DNA of 64,000 nucleotides from the NCBI GenBank assembly GCA_964617735.1, contig CAZTXT010000001.1, forward strand, positions 331,589-395,588, given 5' to 3'. Of this stretch, positions 9,142 through 44,230 are shown one piece after another. Source of the stretch: an uncultured Candidatus Saccharibacteria bacterium. Lineage in GTDB: Bacteria; Patescibacteriota; Minisyncoccia; Phycocordibacterales; DSPV01. How positions within the stretch are numbered: position 1 is the first letter of the stretch; every line of letters begins with the position of its first letter. Below the pieces are notes generated by a model. That model had not been told where the DNA came from and searched no databases. It saw nothing but the letters and a program-made list of their open reading frames with translations. The position numbers were made by a program, and so were the translations under genes.

Positions 9142-9233
9142 TCCACCCACTTGCCTAACGGCACTTCACCTGTGCTTTCCGCAATCCACAGCTCTCGGTT
9201 GTGAATTATCGCTCTAAGCGTAAAATAATAGGT

Positions 9234-9347
9234 ATGAAAAACGATCGATATGGGATGAAAAGCGCACAGTTCATTTTGCTGGCCGTTGGGGTCATCATCG
9301 TGGTGTTCGTACTTTCGTACGGGGTCATCACCGGAAAGGCCTTTTAA
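9234..9347 (+). CDS. 37-aa single-TM micro-protein (hypothetical)
   Basis: ATG at 9234 after 'aataggt', ORF 'MKNDRYGMKSAQFILLAVGVIIVVFVLSYGVITGKAF'. Below the cutoff of the ORF track. Confidence 0.25.
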   Translation: MKNDRYGMKSAQFILLAVGVIIVVFVLSYGVITGKAF

Positions 9348-9388
9348 AGCGCGATTGAGGGCTTTTCTTTGCAACGCATTGTGCTACA

Positions 9389-9985
9389 ATGCGTTTGTCT
9401 AGCGCAATCCATAATCATAGAATCATGACTCTCTTCTCTATTCTTTTAGTCATCGTCGTTTTGGTGTTCGCATGGATCGTATTCGCCTACAACCGCTTCG
9501 TTTCTCTCATCAATCGTTCTAAAGAGGCATGGGCGGATATTGATGTACAGCTTAAGCGTCGCTACGATCTCATTCCCAACCTCGTGAACTCCGTGAAAGG
9601 CTATGCAGCGCACGAGAAATCGGCGTTCGAGAATGTTACGAAAGCGCGCGCGAGTGCAATGGGAGCCCAGAGCCTTGCCGATAAGAATCAAGCGGAGAAC
9701 GTGCTCTCGGGAGCGCTTAAATCTTTGTTCGCGGTGGCTGAAGCGTATCCGGAACTGAAAGCGAATCAGAACTTTTTACAGTTACAAAGCGATCTGACCG
9801 ACACGGAGGACAAAATACAGTCAGCCCGCCGTTTCTACAATGGCAATGTTCGCGACCTCAACACCGCGATCGAATCGTTCCCCGGCAATCTCATTGCCTC
9901 TATGTTCCACTTCGAGAAGATGGAACTCTTTGAGCTTAGCGGTGCTGATACCGCTGCGAAAGAGCCAGTTCACGTGAGCTTCTAG
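9389..9985 (+). CDS. lemA: LemA family protein
   Basis: N-terminal TM segment followed by 'NRFVSLINRSKEAWADIDVQLKRRYDLIPNLV', the LemA signature. Paired with htpX as is commonly seen. Confidence 0.8.
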   Translation: MRLSSAIHNHRIMTLFSILLVIVVLVFAWIVFAYNRFVSLINRSKEAWADIDVQLKRRYDLIPNLVNSVKGYAAHEKSAFENVTKARASAMGAQSLADKNQAENVLSGALKSLFAVAEAYPELKANQNFLQLQSDLTDTEDKIQSARRFYNGNVRDLNTAIESFPGNLIASMFHFEKMELFELSGADTAAKEPVHVSF

Positions 9986-10050
9986 CGGCAGAGGAGCCCG
10001 TTTGGCCTGCTGTTATTGTGTTTGCCGTCTCATTCCTATAAGCTATCCTC

Positions 10051-10956
10051 GTGTCTACGCTTTATACCGAGCAATCAAAGAATGTACGCAGGACATGGTT
10101 TCTCATGTCCTTGTTTTTGGCGATAATCATTTGTATCGGCTGGTTCATCAGCTATTACTATCAGAGCCCTGCGATCCTCTATGTCGCGGTAATCTTTTCG
10201 GTAGTGATGAATATCGCCAGTTTCTGGTTTTCGGACAAGATAACCCTCTCGCTCTCCCATGCGATCCCCGCTGACCCTAAGCAGTACCCGGAACTTTTTC
10301 ACATCGTCGAGAATCTTTCCATCACTGCGGGACTTCCTGAACCGCACCTCTATGTCATAAACGATCCTGCCCCCAATGCGTTCGCGACGGGGAGGGATAA
10401 AGAACACGCCGCAATCGCGGTGACGACTGGTCTTCTGCAGATGCTCGACCGCAATGAGCTTGAAGGCGTCATCGCGCACGAACTCTCGCATATCGGCAAC
10501 CGCGACACGCTGCTGCAGACGGTCGTGGTCGTCTTGGTCGGGTTCATCGCGATTTTGGCGCATATCTTCACCCGTTCATCGTTCGGGTTCGGCGGGCGCC
10601 GGCGCGAAGGAGGGAAAGGCGCTGGTATCTTAGTGCTCATCGGCCTTATCTTCGTGATTCTTTCGCCCATCATTGCGCAGTTGATCCAACTTGCTATTTC
10701 GCGGAAACGTGAATTTCTCGCCGATGCCGATGGCGCGCTGTTGACGCGGTTCCCCGAAGGTCTCGCGCGTGCGCTCAAAAAGATCTCCGCCTACGATCAG
10801 CCGATGCAGTATGCCAACCACGCGACCGCGCACCTCTATATATCCAACCCGTTCGGTCCGCATGAGGAGCAGGGGTTTATCACCAAACTGTTTATGACCC
10901 ATCCCCCGATACCGGAGCGGATCAAAGCGCTGTTAGGCAATCAGGCTGTTGTGTAG
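10051..10956 (+). CDS. htpX: Zinc metalloprotease HtpX (M48 family)
   Basis: 'HELSHIGNRD' HExxH motif and four TM segments. Confidence 0.85.
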   Translation: MSTLYTEQSKNVRRTWFLMSLFLAIIICIGWFISYYYQSPAILYVAVIFSVVMNIASFWFSDKITLSLSHAIPADPKQYPELFHIVENLSITAGLPEPHLYVINDPAPNAFATGRDKEHAAIAVTTGLLQMLDRNELEGVIAHELSHIGNRDTLLQTVVVVLVGFIAILAHIFTRSSFGFGGRRREGGKGAGILVLIGLIFVILSPIIAQLIQLAISRKREFLADADGALLTRFPEGLARALKKISAYDQPMQYANHATAHLYISNPFGPHEEQGFITKLFMTHPPIPERIKALLGNQAVV

Positions 10957-11016
10957 TTGAAAGTTGTGGCATTACAGTTTAGAGTGTGAGCGATCACCGC
11001 TGGTCGCAGAAAGACT

Positions 11017-11101
11017 GGAGGAGTCGCATAGTGGCCTAGTGCGCTCGCTTGGAAAGCGAGTAGGGGGAAACCCCTCGAGAGTTCGAATCTCTCCTCCTCC
11101 G
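11017..11101 (+). tRNA. tRNA-Ser(GGA), type II with long variable arm, no encoded CCA
   Basis: Acceptor GGAGGAG/CTCCTCC, D-loop 'agtgg', anticodon loop 'ttGGAaa', long variable arm, T-arm GAGAG-TTCGAAT-CTCTC, discriminator G. Confidence 0.85.
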
Positions 11102-11288
11102 ATGCGATTTTGAGAATACCTTTTGGTATTCGTAATCGCATTTCGTGTGAATGCGAGATTCGAAAGCCGCAGCGCACGGAGCGAGTGGAGCGAGCGAAGT
11201 CCGACCGAAGGTCGGGCGCGAGGCGGGGTCGAGAGTACTTGGATTTTTGGAGTCCGCAGGACGAACAAAAAGCTTAGTAACTCGTGAC

Positions 11289-11345
11289 CGAATCTCTCCT
11301 CCTCCGCCTGAAGAAGAAAGTATCGGAGGTATGCGAAGGCATACC
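11289..11345 (+). repeat. Direct repeat B1 (contains an 18-bp copy of the tRNA-Ser 3' end)
   Basis: Matches 14963-15019 with about 5 mismatches over 57 bp. The first 18 nt equal tRNA-Ser positions 11084-11101. Confidence 0.8.
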
Positions 11346-11409
11346 CCGGTGATGCGCTGCGGAGGGCTAAGTTGGCTTCGCTCGTAGGTTAGGAGTAATG
11401 TGAAAGTCT

Positions 11410-13338
11410 ATGGCATGGGACGACGGTTTAAGCGCAGGAACATCGGCGCATCGGATTGCGGGATCAACCCATCGGCGTATTCGGGTTTTAGCGGGTCCTG
11501 GCACGGGTAAATCCTTCGCAATGAAGCGACGTGTGGCTCGCATACTTGAAGTTGAAGGCATCGATCCTACGCAGGTGCTCGCAGTAACCTTTACACGAGT
11601 TGCTGCTGAAGATATTCAGCGTGAACTTCTGTCCTTGGGTGTGACGGGCGCTGACAGGTTGAAAGCAAAGACACTCCACAGTCTGGCGATGTCGATACTC
11701 ATGCGTAATCATGTGCTTACCGCCTTAGGTCGAGTACCAAGACCTCTCAACAAATATGAACTTGAGCCATTATTGGCAGATTTGAGTAATACACACGGAA
11801 ACAAGCGTGAGCGTAAGCGTTTGATTAGGGCTTACTCTGCCGCATGGGCACGCCTACAAACTCAGGAGCCTGGGTATACTCGCTCTCCAGCAGAACAATC
11901 TTTTGTGGACGATTTGGTTGCCTGGTTACGTTTTCACAAAGCGATGCTCGTCGATGAATTGATACCGCATCTGTACCAATACTTACGAAATAATCCGGGG
12001 GCTCCAGAAAGAAACGAATTTCGACACCTGTTGGTTGATGAATATCAAGATCTAAATCGTGCTGAACAAGACGCCCTCCATTTTCTTGGGGAGAGCGGCT
12101 CTCTTTGCGTTATTGGTGACGACGATCAATCTATTTATAGCTTCAAACACGCACACCCTGAAGGTATTCGTGATTGGAGCACGGTGCACGCGGCAGACGA
12201 TCATGCAATAGAAGAGTGTCGAAGGTGTCCGACCACTGTCGTACGAATGGCGAACGCCCTCATAGCGCGGAACACTGATCGAATTGTGGGCCGTCTGATG
12301 ACCGAGAGACCAGAAAATGGCTCGGGTGAAGTTGTAATACGCCAATACCGGAGTGCCACACAGGAAACGGAGGCAGTTGCCGAAAGAATATCAGCGTTGA
12401 TAGCAAGTGGTATTGCGCCGAGCGAGATTATTGTTCTCACTCAACGCGAAGCATTTGCTACACCAATTTTTGATCAACTGAGAACGAAAAATATCCCAAC
12501 AAAATCCTATTACGCCGAATCGAGCCTCGACACATTGGAGGCCCAGGAGCGCTTCGCGACCCTAAAGCTCCTTTTGGATAACGAGGATCGAATCGCTTTA
12601 CGTTGGCTCCTTGGCTATGGGGCGGCGGATTGGAGAACGAATGCGTATCGACGTTTAATGAATTACGTAAGAGCAAATCACACATCTCCTTGGAATGCCT
12701 TAAATGCGCTGGTGGCAGGTACCGTCAGTGTTCCTTATACAGGCGCTCTCGTGAGTCGATTCAACGTAATCAAAGCTGAACTAGACTCGTTGCAGGGCGC
12801 GGCAAATCTGGATGAATTCATTTCGCGCTGGCTTCCAGAAAACCCCAATACCGCACTTCTCAGTGAAGCTGTCACTCAAAGCAAAGAAGGACTTGAAACT
12901 TCTCAAGAACTTTACGACGCCTTATACGAAGCGATCACGCACCCAGAAATACCATCTGAAGTTTCGGAAGTAAGGATAATGAGTCTACATAAAAGTAAGG
13001 GTCTGAGTGCCCCGTTCGTATTCATTGTTGGCTGCGTTGAGGGCCTCTTACCCGCATCGGCCGATCCGGATCTAACCGAGGACGAGCAAGCCGCAAAACT
13101 CGAAGAGGATCGGCGGCTATTTTATGTCGGAATTACCCGAGTCAAAGCCGACCCTACGGCAAATATAGTAGGGTATTTGGCCCTGACCTATGCCCGTACT
13201 ATGCCTGCGGCCGAAGCATATGTTAGTCAAATTACACCCTCTCAAACCGTAGGAGGAATGGCATATTTGCAGCCGACTCGGTTCATTGCAGAAATGGCTC
13301 CTCACGCCCCTGTGGCACAGACCAACACCCCTCTCTAA
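11410..13338 (+). CDS. UvrD/Rep-like superfamily 1 DNA helicase (short form)
   Basis: Walker A 'VLAGPGTGKS', motif II 'LLVDEYQDLN', 'VLAVTFTRVAAEDIQ', C-terminal 'IMSLHKSKGLSAPFVFIVGC' UvrD_C motif. Confidence 0.8.
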   Translation: MAWDDGLSAGTSAHRIAGSTHRRIRVLAGPGTGKSFAMKRRVARILEVEGIDPTQVLAVTFTRVAAEDIQRELLSLGVTGADRLKAKTLHSLAMSILMRNHVLTALGRVPRPLNKYELEPLLADLSNTHGNKRERKRLIRAYSAAWARLQTQEPGYTRSPAEQSFVDDLVAWLRFHKAMLVDELIPHLYQYLRNNPGAPERNEFRHLLVDEYQDLNRAEQDALHFLGESGSLCVIGDDDQSIYSFKHAHPEGIRDWSTVHAADDHAIEECRRCPTTVVRMANALIARNTDRIVGRLMTERPENGSGEVVIRQYRSATQETEAVAERISALIASGIAPSEIIVLTQREAFATPIFDQLRTKNIPTKSYYAESSLDTLEAQERFATLKLLLDNEDRIALRWLLGYGAADWRTNAYRRLMNYVRANHTSPWNALNALVAGTVSVPYTGALVSRFNVIKAELDSLQGAANLDEFISRWLPENPNTALLSEAVTQSKEGLETSQELYDALYEAITHPEIPSEVSEVRIMSLHKSKGLSAPFVFIVGCVEGLLPASADPDLTEDEQAAKLEEDRRLFYVGITRVKADPTANIVGYLALTYARTMPAAEAYVSQITPSQTVGGMAYLQPTRFIAEMAPHAPVAQTNTPL

Positions 13339-14511
13339 TTGTCTATGAGTAAGGATGATTATTTCTACCAACACTTGCAGAAAAATACCCTAAAAGATAA
13401 GGATGTTTTTTTGTGGGCGGCTTTAAACATTGAAAATAGCTTTTCGGGGCGGGTTGATATTCTTACGACCGGGCTACACCGATTCTTTTTAGAATCATCG
13501 AAGTTAATACTGAATGCGATTAAGCTTTACGAAGAGGGGTTTTTTGATGCCGCCTTCTACAGCACACGCTCTGCCCTTGAACTCGCGAGAGTTGTTACAT
13601 ATTTCTCAAATGAGAATGAACTTCAGGATAGTGAGGAATATAAAAATTGGAGAAAAGGTGGAAAATTCCCTTTTGATGCAGCAATAAGAAAACAACTGGA
13701 AGCAAGTGGAAGTGTGTACACAGAGGTACACACAACATTGAAGGATTTCTTTGACGAGCAGAAGGATCGACTTTCATCCGTTCAAAAATATATACACAAG
13801 CAAGGTTATAGGACCTTTTATGAAAGAGGATTTACGAATCCAGAAAGGGATAAACAACGGCAGGAAGTAATTGCCGATGATTTCTACCAGTTTCTTAAGG
13901 GGACGTTGGCTGAAGTAGCTTTTCTACGTTTATGTATTGATCCGTTCCCAATCCTCTTACGTGATAGTCAGGTAATGTATAAAATTCATTTTCAAGGAAT
14001 GACGGAGCCTTTTAGTGACGATTTTGTTACTAAAATTATTGGAGAAAATAAAATCAAACTGTACCGTTCAACCGAATTTTACGTCTCGCATCTAAATTAT
14101 TTTAGCGACAACGAAGAACTTACCGAAGAGATGTATACATTGGTTAATAACCAATACTACGATAGAAAAACCTGGTCGATTATTCAACCGCAAGTACATT
14201 TACTTTCCAAAAACGACACCGCTGCAGTCAACATATTTAATATCTCAAATAAGATTGCGAAAATATATATGTTTGGCGGGTTTGTTTGGTACTTCAGTGA
14301 TGTTAATTCACCTGGAGACCATACAGGATTTTCTTCAGAAGACTTATTGAGGGTAAAAGAGTCAGAGATAAAAACTAACTCAAAATACAAAGAATCCTAC
14401 ATGTCTTATTTCAACTTCGACGACGATGGTTTATGGGTTGAGCACAACGAGCCGCTAAACAAACCTGAGATCATTGAAATCGAGAAAGTACTCAATCCTA
14501 AGGTTCAATAG
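13339..14511 (+). CDS. Hypothetical 390-aa protein, translationally coupled to the helicase, AT-rich
   Basis: The TTG/ATG start abuts the helicase stop (TAA at 13336-13338). Codon composition differs markedly from the flanking genes. No motif recognised. Confidence 0.55.
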   Translation: MSMSKDDYFYQHLQKNTLKDKDVFLWAALNIENSFSGRVDILTTGLHRFFLESSKLILNAIKLYEEGFFDAAFYSTRSALELARVVTYFSNENELQDSEEYKNWRKGGKFPFDAAIRKQLEASGSVYTEVHTTLKDFFDEQKDRLSSVQKYIHKQGYRTFYERGFTNPERDKQRQEVIADDFYQFLKGTLAEVAFLRLCIDPFPILLRDSQVMYKIHFQGMTEPFSDDFVTKIIGENKIKLYRSTEFYVSHLNYFSDNEELTEEMYTLVNNQYYDRKTWSIIQPQVHLLSKNDTAAVNIFNISNKIAKIYMFGGFVWYFSDVNSPGDHTGFSSEDLLRVKESEIKTNSKYKESYMSYFNFDDDGLWVEHNEPLNKPEIIEIEKVLNPKVQ

Positions 14512-14794
14512 TTACACTACCTTTTGTAATTTTAATCCTGGACTTAAAACACCCCATAAGTTCACGTTTCTCCGCTCCCGTACCTTCTTTCAGAATGTAT
14601 TTCGCGTAGGTCCGTTGATCAACTTCCTCATGTTTCGTCTTGGCTCCGGAGAACCCTAGTACGCTTCGTTGAAACTTGTTGAATCGTTGTAGTTCTTCCT
14701 CGAACTTGTATCTGATGCCCAGCTCGTTGAAATCGACCTTATCCAAGTTTACGTACGAAAGGAAGCCGTGTTTTCGGTTCAAACTTCGGGACAT
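14498..14794 (-). CDS. Hypothetical small protein (about 99 aa) convergent on the helicase operon
   Basis: Internal Met with an upstream purine-rich stretch. The longer ORF reads through repeat B2, so the short form is preferred. Confidence 0.25.
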   Translation of the reverse strand: MSRSLNRKHGFLSYVNLDKVDFNELGIRYKFEEELQRFNKFQRSVLGFSGAKTKHEEVDQRTYAKYILKEGTGAEKRELMGCFKSRIKITKGSVTIEP

Positions 14795-14962
14795 CGTCCC
14801 CGTATTTGCAAAATTGATAGCTTTTGCTATCTCATTTTGCAAACAAGTTGAGGAAGCGGAGCTTCCGTGAGATTCGAACAGCGGAGCGGTGTTTCGCCAG
14901 CAGGCGAAACCGCGAGCTGGTGCCCAGACCGAGCCGAGTGACGACGAGGCGAGAGTTGCGGG

Positions 14963-15019
14963 CGAATCTCTCCTCCTCCGCCCGAAGAAGAAAGTATCGG
15001 AGATATGCGGACGCATAGC
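14963..15019 (+). repeat. Direct repeat B2 (contains an 18-bp copy of the tRNA-Ser 3' end)
   Basis: See B1. Confidence 0.8.
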
Positions 15020-15102
15020 AGCGAGAGGCGTTATGGGTCGGTTCTTGTACATAGAAGTTCAGCCAGCTTGAGAAAGCTTCGTACTAAATGTAATAATTAC
15101 GC

Positions 15103-15526
15103 TATGGCAACAATCAATCCCTACATTAACTTCAATGGAAATGCTGAAGAAGCATTTAATTTCTACAAGTCAGTATTTGGCGGAGAGTTTACGAATATCA
15201 TTCGCTTCAAAGAACTCTCAAGCCCTGAGTTCCCGGTAGCGGCGAATGAAGCGGATAAGATCATGCGCATCGAGTTGCCGATCGGCAAAAACGTTTTGAT
15301 CGCGAATGATGTCCCGGAAAGCATGGGACGAGTGAACGAGAATGAAAACAGATCCAAGATAGCGATTATTACAGAAACTAAAGAAGAAGCCGATAAACTC
15401 TTCAAAGGTCTTTCGGAAGGGGGCAGCGTTGAAATGCCTATGGATGAAAGTCCTTGGGGTACCTATTTTGCCATGTTCAGGGATAAGTATGGCATCGAAT
15501 GGACAGTGGAGTTTAAACGAAACTAA
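15103..15526 (+). CDS. VOC/glyoxalase-fold protein (PhnB-like)
   Basis: 'MATINPYINFNGNAEEAFNFYKSVFGG' is a typical PhnB/3-demethylubiquinone MTase-like VOC N-terminus. Lies between repeat B2 and the outer repeat A'. Confidence 0.55.
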
Positions 15527-15652
15527 TGGCTAACGGCAAGATGTGATTTTGAGAATACCTTTTGGTAGTTGAGGAAGCAAGAAAATCTATTTTCTTAGAG
15601 AGCATGCTTGGTACAAGATTCGATATTCCAAGAAGTGTGCTAGAATACCATT

Positions 15653-21598: not shown

Positions 21599-22603
21599 AT
21601 GCTCATCGGGAAAGCATCGCCGGAGGATATGAACCTTCACCCACTGCGCTACAAGTGGGCGTATGATTTGTACAATCAGGCCGTGAGGAACACGTGGTTC
21701 CCGCATGAGATCGCACTCAAGGAAGATTTAGACGATTGGCAGAAGATGACCGAAGACGAGCGGCATGCAGTCAAATTTACGATGGCGTTCTTCAATCCGG
21801 CGGAGCTGATCGTCAATCGCTCAATAGCTCTCGGCATCTATCCGTACCTCAAGTCGCCCGAGTGCCATCTCTACCTTGCCAAACAGATGTGGGAGGAGGC
21901 GAACCACTGCGTCGCATTCGAGTATGTGCTCGAGACGTTCCCCTTTGATCGCGAGAAGATCTTCACTTTGCACCTCGAAGTTCCCTCGATGCACAAGAAA
22001 GAAGAATATGTCACGCGCTACACCAAGCGCATGACGGAGGAAAACTTGGATATTACAACGACCGAAGGCAAAAAAGATTTTATCCGAAACCTGGTGGCCA
22101 CTAACATTGTGATGGAAGGTGTCTGGTTCTATTCGGGTTTCATGGTCTCGCTTAGCTTTCGCCAGAGAAATCAATTGCGCAACTTTGGCTCCATGATCAA
22201 CTGGGTACTGCGCGACGAGTCTTTACATCTGAAGTTCGGCATTAACCTCATCCACAATATCTTGGAAGAGAACTCTGACCTCTTGACCGAGGAATTTGCC
22301 GACGAGATACGCACTATCATCATTGAAGGGGTTGATTTGGACACCGCGTACAACCGTGACCTCTTTCCGAATGGCATCCTCGGTCTCAACGCTGACTATG
22401 TCAATCAATACGTCCAATATGTCGCCGACCGCCGGCTTGAAGAGCTAGGGCTCCCCAAGCACTACAATGTCACTAACCCCGCCAAGTGGATGTCCGCTGC
22501 GACCGATGTCTTTGAACTCGTCAATTTCTTTGAAGCGCAAAACACGTCGTACGAAGTGGATTCTCACGCGCACGAGACGAAGAAGAAAGAAGAAGCAAAA
22601 TAA
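21599..22603 (+). CDS. nrdB: Ribonucleotide reductase class I beta subunit NrdB
   Basis: Diiron ferritin-like motifs 'EEANHCVAFEY', 'EGVWFYSGF' and 'DESLHLKFG'. Confidence 0.9.
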   Translation: MLIGKASPEDMNLHPLRYKWAYDLYNQAVRNTWFPHEIALKEDLDDWQKMTEDERHAVKFTMAFFNPAELIVNRSIALGIYPYLKSPECHLYLAKQMWEEANHCVAFEYVLETFPFDREKIFTLHLEVPSMHKKEEYVTRYTKRMTEENLDITTTEGKKDFIRNLVATNIVMEGVWFYSGFMVSLSFRQRNQLRNFGSMINWVLRDESLHLKFGINLIHNILEENSDLLTEEFADEIRTIIIEGVDLDTAYNRDLFPNGILGLNADYVNQYVQYVADRRLEELGLPKHYNVTNPAKWMSAATDVFELVNFFEAQNTSYEVDSHAHETKKKEEAK

Positions 22604-22656
22604 AGACACCCCGACTCTAAGCGAGTCAGGGTGAGTGTAGAAGCAGAAGACTCTTT

Positions 22657-23469
22657 TTATTTTTCTCGGTTCAGTTCTTCCACCAGGGTTGCAGCCTTTC
22701 GGTGTTTTAGTTTGTCATGTTGTCGCCTGTATATATCGATTAACAGTCTTTTTGCTGATGCTCGAGCATCATTTGAGAGCCTTCTTCTACCTACAAAAAG
22801 ACATTTGCCAGTCATTGCTGCACCATAGCCATAGCGAACAGAACTTTCGCCTCTAAATGCTAGGGGTTCCTCAAGCCGGACAGAGAGGGTGTCATCCCAA
22901 GCTGAGACGATGCGTCCTTTGAGGATAATCGACCCAAAATTTGTTTGGATCGGTATATTAGAGTTTCTCTCGAACTCTTCGTCTTTTCTACGTTTTTTAT
23001 CCTCCTTTGCGATGTAACCTTTGACTCGATTTTTCACATAGGTGAGTACAGCTTTTTTGCTACGCTGGACTATGTTGGCTGGCACTATCCCCTTGAGAGA
23101 ATAGATATAATGCGCTCTGGAATCAGGCACTGGTATATCTTCGTTGTATTTGAATGTCACTTTTCCACCCTTACGTTCAAACTCAATGTCTTCCCCAAAA
23201 GCTCCCCATATCGGGATATTAAGTTCTATTCTCAGTTTTTCGATCTCTTCGCTGCTTGGACTTTGGTGTGGCCATTCAGCCCGCTGAACCATAATCGATG
23301 TTTTCAGTTCAACAAGGCGTCTGACGCATGTCTCATCAGCCATAATCTCTGTGAAGGAGAAACCGTCAGTCTCAAAATTGCGTTCTGAGAGAACTGTGTC
23401 TTTTCCGAACAGTTTTTCGACTTCAAACCGTTTGTCAATCGATGGGAACCGAATTTTTATGAGTCTCAT
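22657..23469 (-). CDS. Hypothetical protein (270 aa), lower-GC
   Basis: Long ORF with no recognised motif. Composition differs from the core genes. Confidence 0.45.
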   Translation of the reverse strand: MRLIKIRFPSIDKRFEVEKLFGKDTVLSERNFETDGFSFTEIMADETCVRRLVELKTSIMVQRAEWPHQSPSSEEIEKLRIELNIPIWGAFGEDIEFERKGGKVTFKYNEDIPVPDSRAHYIYSLKGIVPANIVQRSKKAVLTYVKNRVKGYIAKEDKKRRKDEEFERNSNIPIQTNFGSIILKGRIVSAWDDTLSVRLEEPLAFRGESSVRYGYGAAMTGKCLFVGRRRLSNDARASAKRLLIDIYRRQHDKLKHRKAATLVEELNREK

Positions 23470-23764
23470 TATTTTCCTTTCAACGAACTAAAAACACTCC
23501 CGAGAGGGGAGTACATCAAGTAGGTTTCCGAACAAACGAAAAATAGTTTCGTTGTATCTTTTCCGCCGGAGGCGGACTGGAATTGGCACTTCATTCGCCC
23601 TAGGGCGGACAAGTTGCCGATGGAGATTGGGCCAGAGCCCTTAACACTCCATACTCTTGATACACTGTGTTTGCTGGTGGGTAGTCTATACAAGGTCATG
23701 TATTTTGTCAAATTAAGAAAAGAAAAGCCCAGCTGGTTGAACCGGTTGGGCTTTTTGAGTTTCG

Positions 23765-24466
23765 TTAGAGTTTTCCTTTCCATGGAACGAAAGCTTGGTC
23801 AACCAAGGTGAGCCTTGAATAATTATTCACCGCCATACCTTGGTAAATAGTGACTGAAGCATTTTCGAAAACTCCCTCTTGGTATCGTCGAAGCACTTCT
23901 TCAATTGAGAGGTGGTGTACTAGTCGTTGAAAAAGATTCAGCCAATGACCATGTACTACTATTAGTACATTTTGGTCGCCATAGTCACGGTTCAGGGTCC
24001 CCATGAAGCTGTGGATGCGAAGTTCGATGTCGGGCCAATTTTCTCCTCCGAGCGGTCGGTAATGGTAGAGTCCTTCGCGTTCTCTACGTTCTAATTCTTC
24101 AGGAAACCGAGTTCGAATCTGTTCAAGTGTCATCGTATGGAAGATTCCACGCTGGCCTTCTGCAAGGCGGGGGTCTTCATACGTTTTCACTTCTGGATAC
24201 ATGATTTGCATTGTTTCTTTTGAACGTTCGTAATACGAAACGTAATAGGCGTCAAAAGAACCGAATGTATTGTGTAAATATTCCCCGGTGATCTTTGCTT
24301 GTTCTCGTCCACGGGACGTGAGAGGATAGGCATATGTTGCCATCCCAAATTGTGCACGCTCATCAACCCCGCGAACATTTCCCTCAGATTCTGCGTGTCT
24401 AACCAAAACTAACTGTGTAGGCCAAGCCATAACTACCTTTCTGTTAAAGTTCAAATTTATTTGCAT
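23765..24466 (-). CDS. Histidine phosphatase family protein (phosphoglycerate mutase-like)
   Basis: 'LVLVRHAESEGN' RHG motif near the N-terminus. Confidence 0.7.
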   Translation of the reverse strand: MQINLNFNRKVVMAWPTQLVLVRHAESEGNVRGVDERAQFGMATYAYPLTSRGREQAKITGEYLHNTFGSFDAYYVSYYERSKETMQIMYPEVKTYEDPRLAEGQRGIFHTMTLEQIRTRFPEELERREREGLYHYRPLGGENWPDIELRIHSFMGTLNRDYGDQNVLIVVHGHWLNLFQRLVHHLSIEEVLRRYQEGVFENASVTIYQGMAVNNYSRLTLVDQAFVPWKGKL

Positions 24467-24520
24467 ACTACTTGAGTGGCATTTGATGTCAAATGAAAAA
24501 CTCCGCCTTTGGGGCGGAGT

Positions 24521-24987
24521 CTCTCATGTCTACCTTGCGTCTATAAGCCGAATTCTGTCGTTCAATCTTGCGATTGAACGGATAGCCATTTATCTAGGCA
24601 CTCCATTACTGAAGAGCTCAAGCGGCACTCCCCATGAACACTTCCATGTTGGGGCTCGACCTTGCAGCTGGGTAAGGATTTAGCCGTTTCACTTCTTCTG
24701 TTGCCAAAAGAACTCGCCCCATGAAGTAGACTTTCGTCACTTAACGGGGCGGTCATTCGCTTTCGCTCATGACCGTCTCTGTTCGCACCTCGCACTTTGC
24801 AGTGGACGGGCGTTACCCGCTACCTTCTTAACCGAGCACCTTTCAAGTCATCTTAATCATCTTGATCAACACGACCTAAAAGGTGCTCGGTAGCAGTTCG
24901 GACTTTCCTCCGAGCACCTTTCAAGTCATCTTAATCATCTTGATCAACACGACCTAAGAGGTGCTCGGCGGCTACCCGACGCAGGGC
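24521..24987 (-). ncRNA. rnpB: RNase P RNA (bacterial type A) carrying a duplicated 59-nt P3-like hairpin module
   Basis: On the minus strand: 'GGAGGAAAGTCCGAAC' (P4 5'), 'GGTAACGCC', 'GCTTGAGC', 'CCTAGATAAATGGCT', 'ACGACAGAATTCGGCTTATAG' (P4 3'). A terminator hairpin plus T-run sits at 24496-24519. A sigma70-like promoter (TTGCAG-17-TACAAT) sits at 24994-25022 on the minus strand. Confidence 0.75.
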
Positions 24988-24993
24988 AGGGGA

Positions 24994-25022
24994 ATTGTAC
25001 AACATTTGTTTTGCGTCTGCAA
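24994..25022 (-). promoter_or_regulatory. Sigma70-like promoter for rnpB (-35 TTGCAG, 17-nt spacer, -10 TACAAT)
   Basis: Read on the minus strand. The -10 lies about 7 nt upstream of the predicted RNase P RNA 5' end. Confidence 0.45.
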
Positions 25023-32943: not shown

Positions 32944-33020
32944 GCCGGGGTAGCTCAGTTGGTTAGAGCGTCCGCCTGAAGAGCGGTAGGTCGCCAGTTC
33001 GACTCTGGCCCCCGGCACCA
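32944..33020 (+). tRNA. tRNA-Phe(GAA) with encoded CCA
   Basis: Acceptor GCCGGGG/CCCCGGC, D-arm 'agctcagttggttagagc', anticodon loop 'ctGAAga', T-arm GCCAG-TTCGACT-CTGGC, CCA at 33018-33020. Confidence 0.9.
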
Positions 33021-34475
33021 GTTGGGAAAAGTCAAAGAATCTTTATTCGCCTCGCTTCGCTCGGCGAGCACTTCGCGCGGCCTGTTCAGCGTAAAATGCA
33101 GTTTCCGATCTTCCAGACAAAAGTTCGAGCCGATGGTTTTAAGAAATGTTGTCATTCCTGCAAAGTTCTCCGAACTTTGCAGAATAAAGGCTTGATTCAA
33201 GGATTTTACGAACTCACGAGCTAGTTCGAGCCACGACAATCCTTTCTGTTCAAAATCAGTGATTTGTTCCTGAAGTTGTAACTTTTGGGAAATGAATTTT
33301 TCTTTTTTCCTCGCGTACTCTTCATGCGTCAACCCCTCACTCAAATACAAGTCTACAAGCTTGTCCAGCTTTTTCTCGACATCGGCTAACTCGACTTTAA
33401 GATTTTGAACAGAAAGGACAGCTTGTTGCCTTGCTCGCCTTTCGTCTTTTTCAAGTTCTGCTAATACCTTCTCCATGTCGTGGCTCGGCAAGGAAACTTT
33501 TCGTAAGAGATTTCTGATTTGCTCGGCTAACTTTTCCTCCCGCACAAAATGCTTTTCTTGGCAGTTTCCTTTTTTCTTGGTGCATCGGTAGTAGTGGTGT
33601 CCTTTCTGTATTTCGGCGGTGATTGAACATCCGCAACTTTTGCATTTCATAAGTCCAAGAAAAGCAAAGTGGTGTTTCTTTATCTCGCAGACCTTGCCGC
33701 GTTTTTCCAAAACCTCCTGCACCTTGTCGAAAAGTTTCTTTGATATGATCGGCTCGTGAGTTCCTTCGAAAATTTCCCCCTTCCACCTCATGAGTCCGGT
33801 GTAGAAAATATTTTGTAGCATGACAGGAATATGGCTCATGGCGATATTGCCGTTTGTATTGCTTTTCAGACCATTTTCCTTGCACCAATTTGCGAGAGAG
33901 TGGAGAGTGTAGTTTCCGGTGGAATACAGTTCAAATAACCTCCTCACTTTTGGGGCTTTCTCCGCATCAACATCAATTCCTCTCGTCTTTGGGTTGTTCA
34001 GGTATCCCACCGGAGCCCAGCCAGGCCAAACGCCATTTCGTATTTTTTGTCTCAAACCTCGCTTCACATTCTCTCGCAAATTGTCTACAAAATATTTTGA
34101 TTGGCCGAAAGCGATATTGAGCATAAACGAACCTTGCGGTGTCGGTTCGAACCAGAAGGTGGGAAATTTCAAAGATCTAATCAAGCCTTTATCAATCATG
34201 TAAATGATGCGTCCACCATCTACACTGTTTCTCGCAAGACGATCGGGGTGCCATGAGACAATACCCTCGGCTTTTCCTTTCTCAATCAATGACAACATTT
34301 CTTGAAACTTGGGACGGCCAGTCTCTTTGGCTGTTTGTGCCTCGCAAAGCGAGGCGACAATTTCAAGTTTTTCTTTGGCGCAATACAAAGACAGCTCAGC
34401 AAGCTGAGCTTGAATTGAAAGCACTTGTCGGTCATCTTCCTCGGTTGATTTCCGAGCGTAGAGGATGTATTTCAT
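32955..34475 (-). CDS. Large serine recombinase (resolvase catalytic domain, recombinase domain and zinc ribbon)
   Basis: N-terminal 'YARKSTEEDD' catalytic Ser motif, zinc-ribbon 'CKSCGCS...YYRC'. The last roughly 20 codons run antisense through tRNA-Phe. Confidence 0.85.
   Translation of the reverse strand: MKYILYARKSTEEDDRQVLSIQAQLAELSLYCAKEKLEIVASLCEAQTAKETGRPKFQEMLSLIEKGKAEGIVSWHPDRLARNSVDGGRIIYMIDKGLIRSLKFPTFWFEPTPQGSFMLNIAFGQSKYFVDNLRENVKRGLRQKIRNGVWPGWAPVGYLNNPKTRGIDVDAEKAPKVRRLFELYSTGNYTLHSLANWCKENGLKSNTNGNIAMSHIPVMLQNIFYTGLMRWKGEIFEGTHEPIISKKLFDKVQEVLEKRGKVCEIKKHHFAFLGLMKCKSCGCSITAEIQKGHHYYRCTKKKGNCQEKHFVREEKLAEQIRNLLRKVSLPSHDMEKVLAELEKDERRARQQAVLSVQNLKVELADVEKKLDKLVDLYLSEGLTHEEYARKKEKFISQKLQLQEQITDFEQKGLSWLELAREFVKSLNQAFILQSSENFAGMTTFLKTIGSNFCLEDRKLHFTLNRPREVLAERSEANKDSLTFPNWCRGPESNWRPTALQADALTN
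33014..33094. repeat. Inverted repeat a, left copy (includes the tRNA-Phe CCA end)
   Basis: Reverse complement of 34530-34610. Confidence 0.8.
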
Positions 34476-44140: not shown

Positions 44141-44230
44141 TGGCGGAGGAGGTGAGATTCGAACTCACGAGAGGATTTCTCCCCTACCGCATTTCGAGTG
44201 CGGCGCGTTAGACCACTCTGCCACTCCTCC
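44141..44230 (-). tRNA. tRNA-Ser(CGA), type II, with encoded CCA
   Basis: Minus-strand read 'ggaggagtggcagagtggtctaacgcgccgcactCGAaatgcggtaggggagaaatcctctcgtgagttcgaatctcacctcctccgcca'. Confidence 0.85.

Follow-up and report, generated by a model that had tools for sequence, protein, structure and literature searches.

Do two adjacent genes in a small tRNA-associated islet form one undescribed defence system, or are they separate pieces of cargo lying side by side? This question is raised by a 64,000-nucleotide stretch of contig CAZTXT010000001.1 from an uncultured Candidatus Saccharibacteria bacterium (hereafter the window). The genes encode a UvrD-type superfamily 1 (SF1) helicase and a second protein, here called the partner, and an original prediction made from the DNA letters alone had put them forward as a candidate two-gene defence module. 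We found that the pair is specific to the window's own lineage. It is rather probable that the region 11102–15567 is a fossil recombinase insert with stacked, independent accessory cargo, in which the partner is a self-contained HEPN-type effector; a new two-gene system at this locus is unsupported as it stands. The three genes on which the argument turns are:

11410..13338, plus strand: UvrD-type SF1 helicase, 642 amino acids (aa), with Pfam matches to UvrD-helicase (1e-40), UvrD_C (5e-27) and AAA_19 (4e-17)
13345..14511, plus strand: partner, 388 aa from ATG 13345 (390 aa from TTG 13339), GC 0.374
14498..14790, minus strand: large serine recombinase remnant (C-terminal ~82–130 aa), recognised by blastp to the recombinases of loci L080 and L075 and by alignment with the full-length recombinases of L118, L119 and L084

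Partner homologs were collected from 66 genome loci and 5 viral loci and helicase homologs from 38 metagenome loci, to which the contexts of 13 single proteins were added. In the final census of 129 loci, a partner homolog is present in 90 and a helicase homolog in 39, and the two sets overlap only in L001, a 2.1-kb contig that is 100% identical to the window. Beyond the window's own sequence, helicase and partner co-occur in none of the other 89 partner loci and in none of the other 38 helicase loci. The original prediction had named a lack of synteny in other genomes as a ground for refuting its two-gene module, and on that ground the module is not supported.

The closest helicase (P0121 in L118, 91% aa identity) is directly followed by a convergent recombinase, without a partner. 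L118 aligns to the window at 11367–13342 (80.6% nucleotide identity) and again at 14515–14746, and the partner gene exactly fills the gap: it is a clean 1.17-kb indel, the size of the open reading frame (ORF), flanked by the stop codons of the helicase and recombinase genes. Neither a target-site duplication nor a cassette repeat was found at the junctions of the partner ORF. Sibling islands share the recombinase lineage and the attachment (att) sequence of the window islet and differ in cargo:

L118, L080 and L084: helicase, then convergent recombinase, apparently nothing else; L080 adjoins tRNA-Gln
L119: tRNA end with att extension, HamA, HamB, partner (76% identical), convergent recombinase
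L075: tRNA-Gln, partner, a 161-aa gene, Shedu (SduA_C), recombinase stump

A single alignment runs collinearly through L119 and window 13344–14745, and the arrangement in the window resembles a combination of the L118 type with the L119 type. The two genes also differ in base composition. The second gene had been described as AT-rich, and rightly so, with a GC content of 0.374 against 0.507 for the window; the value is 0.497 for the helicase gene and 0.559 for GroEL nearby, and the 12-point gap between helicase and partner genes indicates separate origins. Both genes are under purifying selection (dN/dS 0.03 for the helicase against L118, and 0.08 for the partner against L121). Helicase and partner are separately conserved, separately mobile genes, and their pairing is specific to the lineage of the window.

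At the junction, the helicase stop TAA (13336–13338) is followed by TTG 13339 (TTGTCT) and then by ATG 13345. All partner homologs begin at the ATG position, with M-[STN]-K/E-x-D, and the database entry P0001 is 388 aa long; the true start is almost certainly ATG 13345. The codons described in the original prediction are in place, while the direct abutment that it read from them gives way to an intergenic spacer of 6 nucleotides (nt), across which the two genes are very likely co-transcribed, judging from their layout.

The pair was correctly placed in a repeat-bounded islet beside a tRNA gene. Flanking genes are of the housekeeping kind, with LemA and an M48 peptidase on the left, then the tRNA, and MsrB and an NAD-dependent epimerase on the right. 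Between them lie the following features:

11016..11102, plus strand: tRNA-Ser(GGA) (ARAGORN; Rfam tRNA, 55 bits), the integration target; its last 18 nt (11084–11101) are att core copy 1, repeat family D2
11101..11128, plus strand: 28-nt tRNA flank (GATGCGATTTTGAGAATACCTTTTGGTA), repeat D3, outer left limit of the composite insert
11289..11356, plus strand: att core copy 2 with a 50-nt island-end sequence, repeat D1/D2, left end of the helicase islet
14963..15030, plus strand: att core copy 3 with the island-end extension, repeat D1/D2, right boundary of the helicase islet
15104..15526, plus strand: glyoxalase/VOC-family gene, 140 aa (Pfam Glyoxalase, 4e-12), GC 0.434, between att copy 3 and the second tRNA flank
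15540..15567, plus strand: second copy of the 28-nt tRNA flank, repeat D3, 96% identical, right limit of the composite insert, with MsrB and the epimerase next

Three copies of the 18-nt tRNA 3′ end CGAATCTCTCCTCCTCCG are present, at 11084, 11289 and 14963, where none would be expected by chance; in copies 2 and 3 the similarity continues, giving direct repeats of 68 nt (85% identical) on either side of the gene pair. The cargo is thus surrounded by direct att repeats derived from a tRNA 3′ end, as in tRNA islands of large serine recombinases. A stretch upstream of att copy 3 (cgagagtt..cgaatctctcctcctccg) resembles a further part of the tRNA 3′ half, and the left end of sibling island L119 is the same tRNA end plus extension (79% identical). 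The 23-nt core of the tRNA-flank repeat occurs exactly twice in the window, against zero expected. Att core copy 3 apparently doubles as the left boundary of another islet, now gutted, whose cargo probably includes the glyoxalase/VOC gene. A 187-nt filler at 11102–11288, between the tRNA and att copy 2, opens with the tRNA's own 28-nt flank, and the history of the insert (three cores, two flanks) is therefore more complex than a single integration. The tRNA was the sole match in an Rfam scan, and a promoter and terminator scan of the islet returned fewer sites than shuffled sequence.

The features listed in the original prediction are all present, and it overlooked one: the previously unannotated, convergent mechanical ORF 14498..15052, which crosses the att repeat and holds the recombinase remnant. 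The last ~82 residues of the remnant are 77% identical in amino acid sequence to the tail of the L119 recombinase, and its more N-terminal part has decayed. Full-length homologs carry Pfam Resolvase, Recombinase and Zn_ribbon_recom domains, with full-length genes in the siblings L084, L119, L118 and L080; the remnant lacks the catalytic N-terminal domain and with it the complete set. With only a C-terminal stump of its recombinase left, the islet has lost the ability to move on its own. As a decayed member of its kind, the locus represents the fossil islet of a serine recombinase within a tRNA gene, and is probably one of two tandem islet remnants.

The partner had been taken for an orphan with no recognisable motif. 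It belongs instead to a family of 207 clusters at 90% identity, with a conserved signature and weak matches to DUF5677 (PF18928). A profile search of 1.84 billion sequences found 391 representatives at 50% identity (165 of them at E <= 1e-30), almost all with a single architecture of ~380–410 aa and no fusions. Its hosts are scattered across Nomurabacteria, Lactococcus, Bifidobacterium, Flavobacteriia, Bacteroidales, Collinsella, Clostridia, Liberiplasma and Methanobrevibacter. The protein consists of an N-terminal HEPN-like (DUF5677-related) helical domain at ~aa 46–200, which has the four-helix up-down fold of the HEPN superfamily, and a C-terminal Roadblock/LC7-like alpha/beta domain at ~aa 300–390. 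We know of no described HEPN protein that has a Roadblock/LC7-like C-terminal domain as its partner domain. The family signature reads GxFDAAFYSxRxAxE ... [NQ]KY[IV]H[KR]QG ... RLxxDPFP, with E52, N59, G67, R77, E81, W104, K150, H153, Q155, G156, R197, D201, P202 and P204 invariant.

DUF5677 is matched over the N-terminal ~110 residues by 20 of 30 family members at E<0.05 (best 2.6e-6), and one member, P0053, carries a precomputed PF18928 match. Further Pfam matches below threshold, over the N-terminal ~110–150 residues, are to YaaC-like proteins (7 of 30 members) and HEPN (1 of 30). With just 391 representatives found by its profile in 1.84 billion, the family is a distinct small sister family and not mainstream DUF5677; by its sequence it appears related to DUF5677 without being a clear member. 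Searches of PADLOC, NCBIfam and PHROGs gave no usable match, and no housekeeping family was matched in these or in Pfam. The family profile found only chance matches among all PDB chains (E >= 0.34). No INPHARED phage had a partner match, and the single match in PLSDB, unannotated, lies on a Paenibacillus replicon of 2.7 Mb. Only five loci with a partner homolog were found in IMG/VR, which indicates that the family is not mainly phage-borne.

Partner homologs live among defence genes, and to this extent the defence context first proposed holds good. In 28 non-redundant loci, neighbours within two genes include type I restriction R subunits, Schlafen/AlbA_2-HATPase_c_4 proteins (4), HD-CE (2), HamAB (2) and AbiEii (2), as well as Mrr, GIY-YIG/DUF4357, DUF4145, SMODS-associated NUDIX, and serine and tyrosine recombinases or integrases. 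The Bifidobacterium homolog lies 39 nt after a resolvase, with a RelB/YafQ pair upstream and AIPR and MmeI near. DUF5677 itself is statistically enriched beside serine recombinases in Bacillota (bioRxiv 10.1101/2025.10.07.681051). In the close partner clade (>=57% identity), 4 of 11 contexts have the gene 2–13 nt after a helicase, and these helicases belong to three unrelated classes: UvrD-like SF1 (window), Hachiman HamB (L119 and L120) and DinG-like PDC-S28 (L122, E 6e-107). The other seven have no helicase upstream; there the gene is found with DUF4145, Fic, a Y1 transposase or an AAA/Ppl-like operon, at a contig end, or standing alone. The partner family is an uncharacterised HEPN-like and Roadblock-like family of defence islands, with a possible preference for a place behind helicases.

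Several individual loci of the family deserve a record of their own. A Schlafen/AlbA_2 protein with HATPase_c_4 (in part with a winged helix-turn-helix domain) is the most recurrent single neighbour of distant homologs, adjoining the partner gene in four non-redundant Bacteroidales and Clostridia loci, upstream in L020 and L023 and downstream in L035 and L021. In Liberiplasma polymorphum (L044, 6296–10372), a partner homolog lies between the terminase large subunit (TerL) and portal genes of a prophage, a moron-like position. A metagenome-assembled genome of the archaeon Methanobrevibacter (L012, 7959–10415) carries two paralogs in tandem, one of 403 aa and one of 384 aa; the latter shares 30% identity with the window partner. 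In L006, the convergent neighbour (9154–10431, minus strand, 426 aa) of a 57%-identical homolog is weakly similar to the partner's HEPN-like region (E 0.001), and may represent a second, divergent HEPN-like protein.

The description of the helicase as a 642-aa UvrD-type protein with Walker A (GPGTGKS), DEYQD and a UvrD_C region agrees with the ORF and the Pfam matches. In PADLOC it matches many GajB hidden Markov models (HMMs), best at E 1e-49, no better than a generic PcrA model in NCBIfam (9e-53). Because the GajB and generic PcrA/UvrD models score alike, the GajB match shows only UvrD-type helicase homology. The NCBIfam models of the UvrD/PcrA/Rep group give 180, 166 and 165 bits against equivalog cut-offs of 911, 1144 and 951, and on these scores the helicase is classed as accessory, not core UvrD/PcrA/Rep, as had been predicted. 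Its relatives at 65–72% identity are scattered over candidate phyla radiation (CPR) bacteria, Gemmatimonadaceae, Bradyrhizobium and Mesorhizobium. More distant relatives (35–50% identity), which have no recombinase, lie beside an N6/N4 DNA methylase, AbiJ-like plus GIY-YIG genes, DUF3800 or an AAA_21/Ppl-like ATPase. Two of the relatives, in L086 and L087, are ~41% identical to the window helicase and have a 715–726-aa N6/N4 DNA methyltransferase gene 16–19 nt upstream (L086, 844–2991; L087, 3802–5982); these may be a methylase-helicase pair distinct from the window arrangement.

Among known systems, Gabija and Hachiman had been set aside in the original prediction, and we agree. As for Gabija, the helicase matches GajB HMMs about as well as it matches the generic PcrA/UvrD models. 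No GajA (OLD-type ATPase-TOPRIM) is present in the islet: upstream are the att repeat and tRNA-Ser, preceded by LemA and the M48 peptidase, and the downstream gene has no PADLOC, ATPase or TOPRIM match. The likeness to Hachiman lies in the two closest partner homologs (L119 and L120), which sit 2–6 nt after hamB of complete HamA+HamB systems. In contrast, the window has neither HamA (DUF1837) nor HamB (superfamily 2 DEAD/ResIII), its helicase is SF1, and the partner has no match to HamA. Extra genes on Hachiman have been described, namely HamC (DUF3223) in type II (PMC8565338) and PezAT in Streptococcus (PMC13064477), and the partner is neither DUF3223/HamC nor a Pez protein. HamC was considered as the identity of the gene after hamB and rejected, HamC being DUF3223 (PMC8565338).

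The RADS/tRNA islands (bioRxiv 10.1101/2025.10.07.681051) are similar in that small defence-type cargo adjoins a serine recombinase, integrated at a tRNA 3′ end between direct att repeats, in that DUF5677 is enriched there, and in the position of the Bifidobacterium homolog after its resolvase. They differ in that the window recombinase is of the large serine type, faces its cargo convergently and survives as a stump, and in that the published survey covers Bacillota, whereas the host of the window looks like a small-genome bacterium of the CPR type, to judge from the 675-kb contig and the Nomurabacteria/Parcubacteria relatives. With the HEPN defence proteins (PrrC/RloC, AbiV, AbiJ/Abi_C, DUF4145 and RnlA/LsoA; PMC3710099) the partner shares the helical-bundle fold, the defence islands and the helicase or restriction neighbours. 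Unlike them, it does not have Rx4-6H intact and has no ABC ATPase, MNT or antitoxin partner: no small antitoxin or MNT ORF lies between 13339 and 15100, where its neighbours are the helicase and the recombinase stump.

How, then, could the two genes have come to stand together? The idea that both are housekeeping genes, the helicase being UvrD/PcrA, can appeal to the generic PcrA/UvrD/Rep models that are its best NCBIfam matches, yet it is hardly credible, given scores five- to seven-fold under the equivalog cut-offs, a position between att repeats in a tRNA gene, the patchy, cross-phylum spread of both families, and the failure of the partner to match any housekeeping family in Pfam, NCBIfam, PHROGs or PADLOC. 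The original idea of dedicated components of one undescribed defence system, with the helicase as sensor or motor and the partner as effector, draws on the shared strand, the 6-nt spacer, the lack of a promoter-like site within the helicase 3′ end, the island context, and two intact genes under purifying selection. It is nevertheless very unlikely, with no co-occurrence elsewhere, a 91%-identical helicase that has no partner, the 12-point GC difference, and closest partner homologs that follow other systems. A third account has the helicase serve to maintain or replicate the recombinase element, for example in the replication or processing of an excised circle, and leaves the partner as the sole defence-type cargo. 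The three closest helicase contexts (L118, L080 and L084), which appear to consist of a helicase and a convergent large serine recombinase alone, speak for it, and the distant relatives in defence-island-like contexts without a recombinase speak against it; we consider it improbable.

More can be said for the partner as a promiscuous plug-in, a HEPN-type second-line effector or guard that would dock on, or be released by, an upstream defence helicase, which in the window would be the UvrD-type one. The analogy is PrrC, which is kept latent by the EcoprrI restriction enzyme and serves as the model case for second-line effectors (PMC3710099). Consistent with such a role are the 4 of 11 close contexts behind helicases of three unrelated classes, and distant homologs located two genes behind a type I R subunit (L018) or behind a UvrD-like helicase (L014). 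Fusion or linkage of HEPN domains with SF1 and SF2 helicases and with restriction subunits is, moreover, seen repeatedly, and the second-line PrrC-type model has been established once (PMC3710099). Weighing on the other side, 7 of 11 close contexts have no helicase upstream, none of the 391 family representatives is fused to a helicase, and the family also occurs after a small resolvase (Bifidobacterium) and in a prophage morphogenesis module. Helicases are common in defence islands, so that three independent events in about ten are suggestive only. We therefore treat the plug-in as a possible reading that we on the whole doubt. Its fullest form is likewise doubtful: here the partner would found an undescribed HEPN-like/Roadblock-like plug-in family, translationally coupled 3′ of unrelated helicases (UvrD-like, HamB and PDC-S28), as a portable second line that fires once the helicase system is engaged or disabled.

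The reading that we favour, a fossil insert with independently stacked cargo, would have the composite insert 11102–15567 built in the 3′ end of tRNA-Ser(GGA) by a family of small islands, each moved by a large serine recombinase with one to three defence-type genes aboard. The islet 11289–15030 would now retain an accessory UvrD-type helicase, the 388-aa HEPN-like protein and the recombinase C-terminal stump. The helicase may be defence cargo or an element function; in the proposed scheme it would be an orphan GajB-like motor. The HEPN-type helical domain of the partner would bind or cut RNA, its C-terminal Roadblock/LC7-like domain would act as a sensor or regulator that restrains the HEPN-type domain, and the protein would work alone or as an add-on to an upstream defence gene. 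The layout of the locus, the absence of synteny, the folds, the family of islands and the purifying selection have been shown, and beyond these we infer defence function, RNA targeting and gating for the partner, which is probably a self-contained, sensor-gated HEPN-type effector and possibly a second-line add-on.

Several observations weigh against this reading. The window partner matches DUF5677 with 18.1 bits (E 0.003), below the gathering score of 27.1, and Foldseek against PDB gave no significant match (best E 0.2), although 2hsb reached a probability of 0.97. The HEPN Rx4-6H motif is not intact: the corresponding stretch reads x-[NQ]-K-Y-[IV]-H153-[KR]-Q-G, with no arginine 4–6 residues before the histidine, which leaves the predicted RNase activity of the partner uncertain. 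Of the HEPN RNase motif, the sequence [NQ]KY[IV]H[KR]QG retains the polar residue and the histidine; a small or hydrophobic residue takes the place of the arginine, and the invariant R77, E81 and K150 lie elsewhere; some HEPN families (Parep1/8 and c2405) also retain the histidine without the arginine (PMC3710099). The 6-nt spacing, together with the place of the partner after helicases in 4 of 11 close contexts, could reflect real functional coupling. How the att core came to be present three times, and the tRNA flank twice, is reconstructed only in part. Any function assigned to the partner family is a prediction, and the one DUF5677 ORF tried in E. faecalis against six phages was outside the five ORFs that protected (bioRxiv 10.1101/2025.10.07.681051).

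Other parts of the window may hold further islands. A second, full-length large serine recombinase gene (32955–34475, minus strand, 506 aa, Resolvase+Recombinase+Zn_ribbon_recom) overlaps tRNA-Phe (32944–33020) with its 3′ end, and the ~2 kb after it have a low GC content of 0.44–0.45. This region is probably another island of the same kind, possibly still mobile. The att core recurs with one mismatch at 44144–44161 within tRNA-Ser(CGA) (44141–44230, minus strand), next to a region at 44–50 kb with GC 0.41–0.47 that may be a further insertion site or island. GC also dips to 0.44–0.48 at 22000–25000, against a backbone of ~0.52–0.55.

Small-genome CPR bacteria are regarded as having few of the known defence systems. 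Should the partner family prove active, the catalogue of defence genes would gain a compact HEPN-type module encoded by a single ORF, and if the plug-in reading were true, the family would be a modular guard of the PrrC kind, passing from one system to another as one ORF. Three sibling islands, carrying the helicase, the helicase and partner, and Hachiman and partner, respectively, form an unusually clean natural case of single-ORF cargo shuffling. The locus also lends itself to testing the old idea that helicase or restriction systems have HEPN proteins as a backup.

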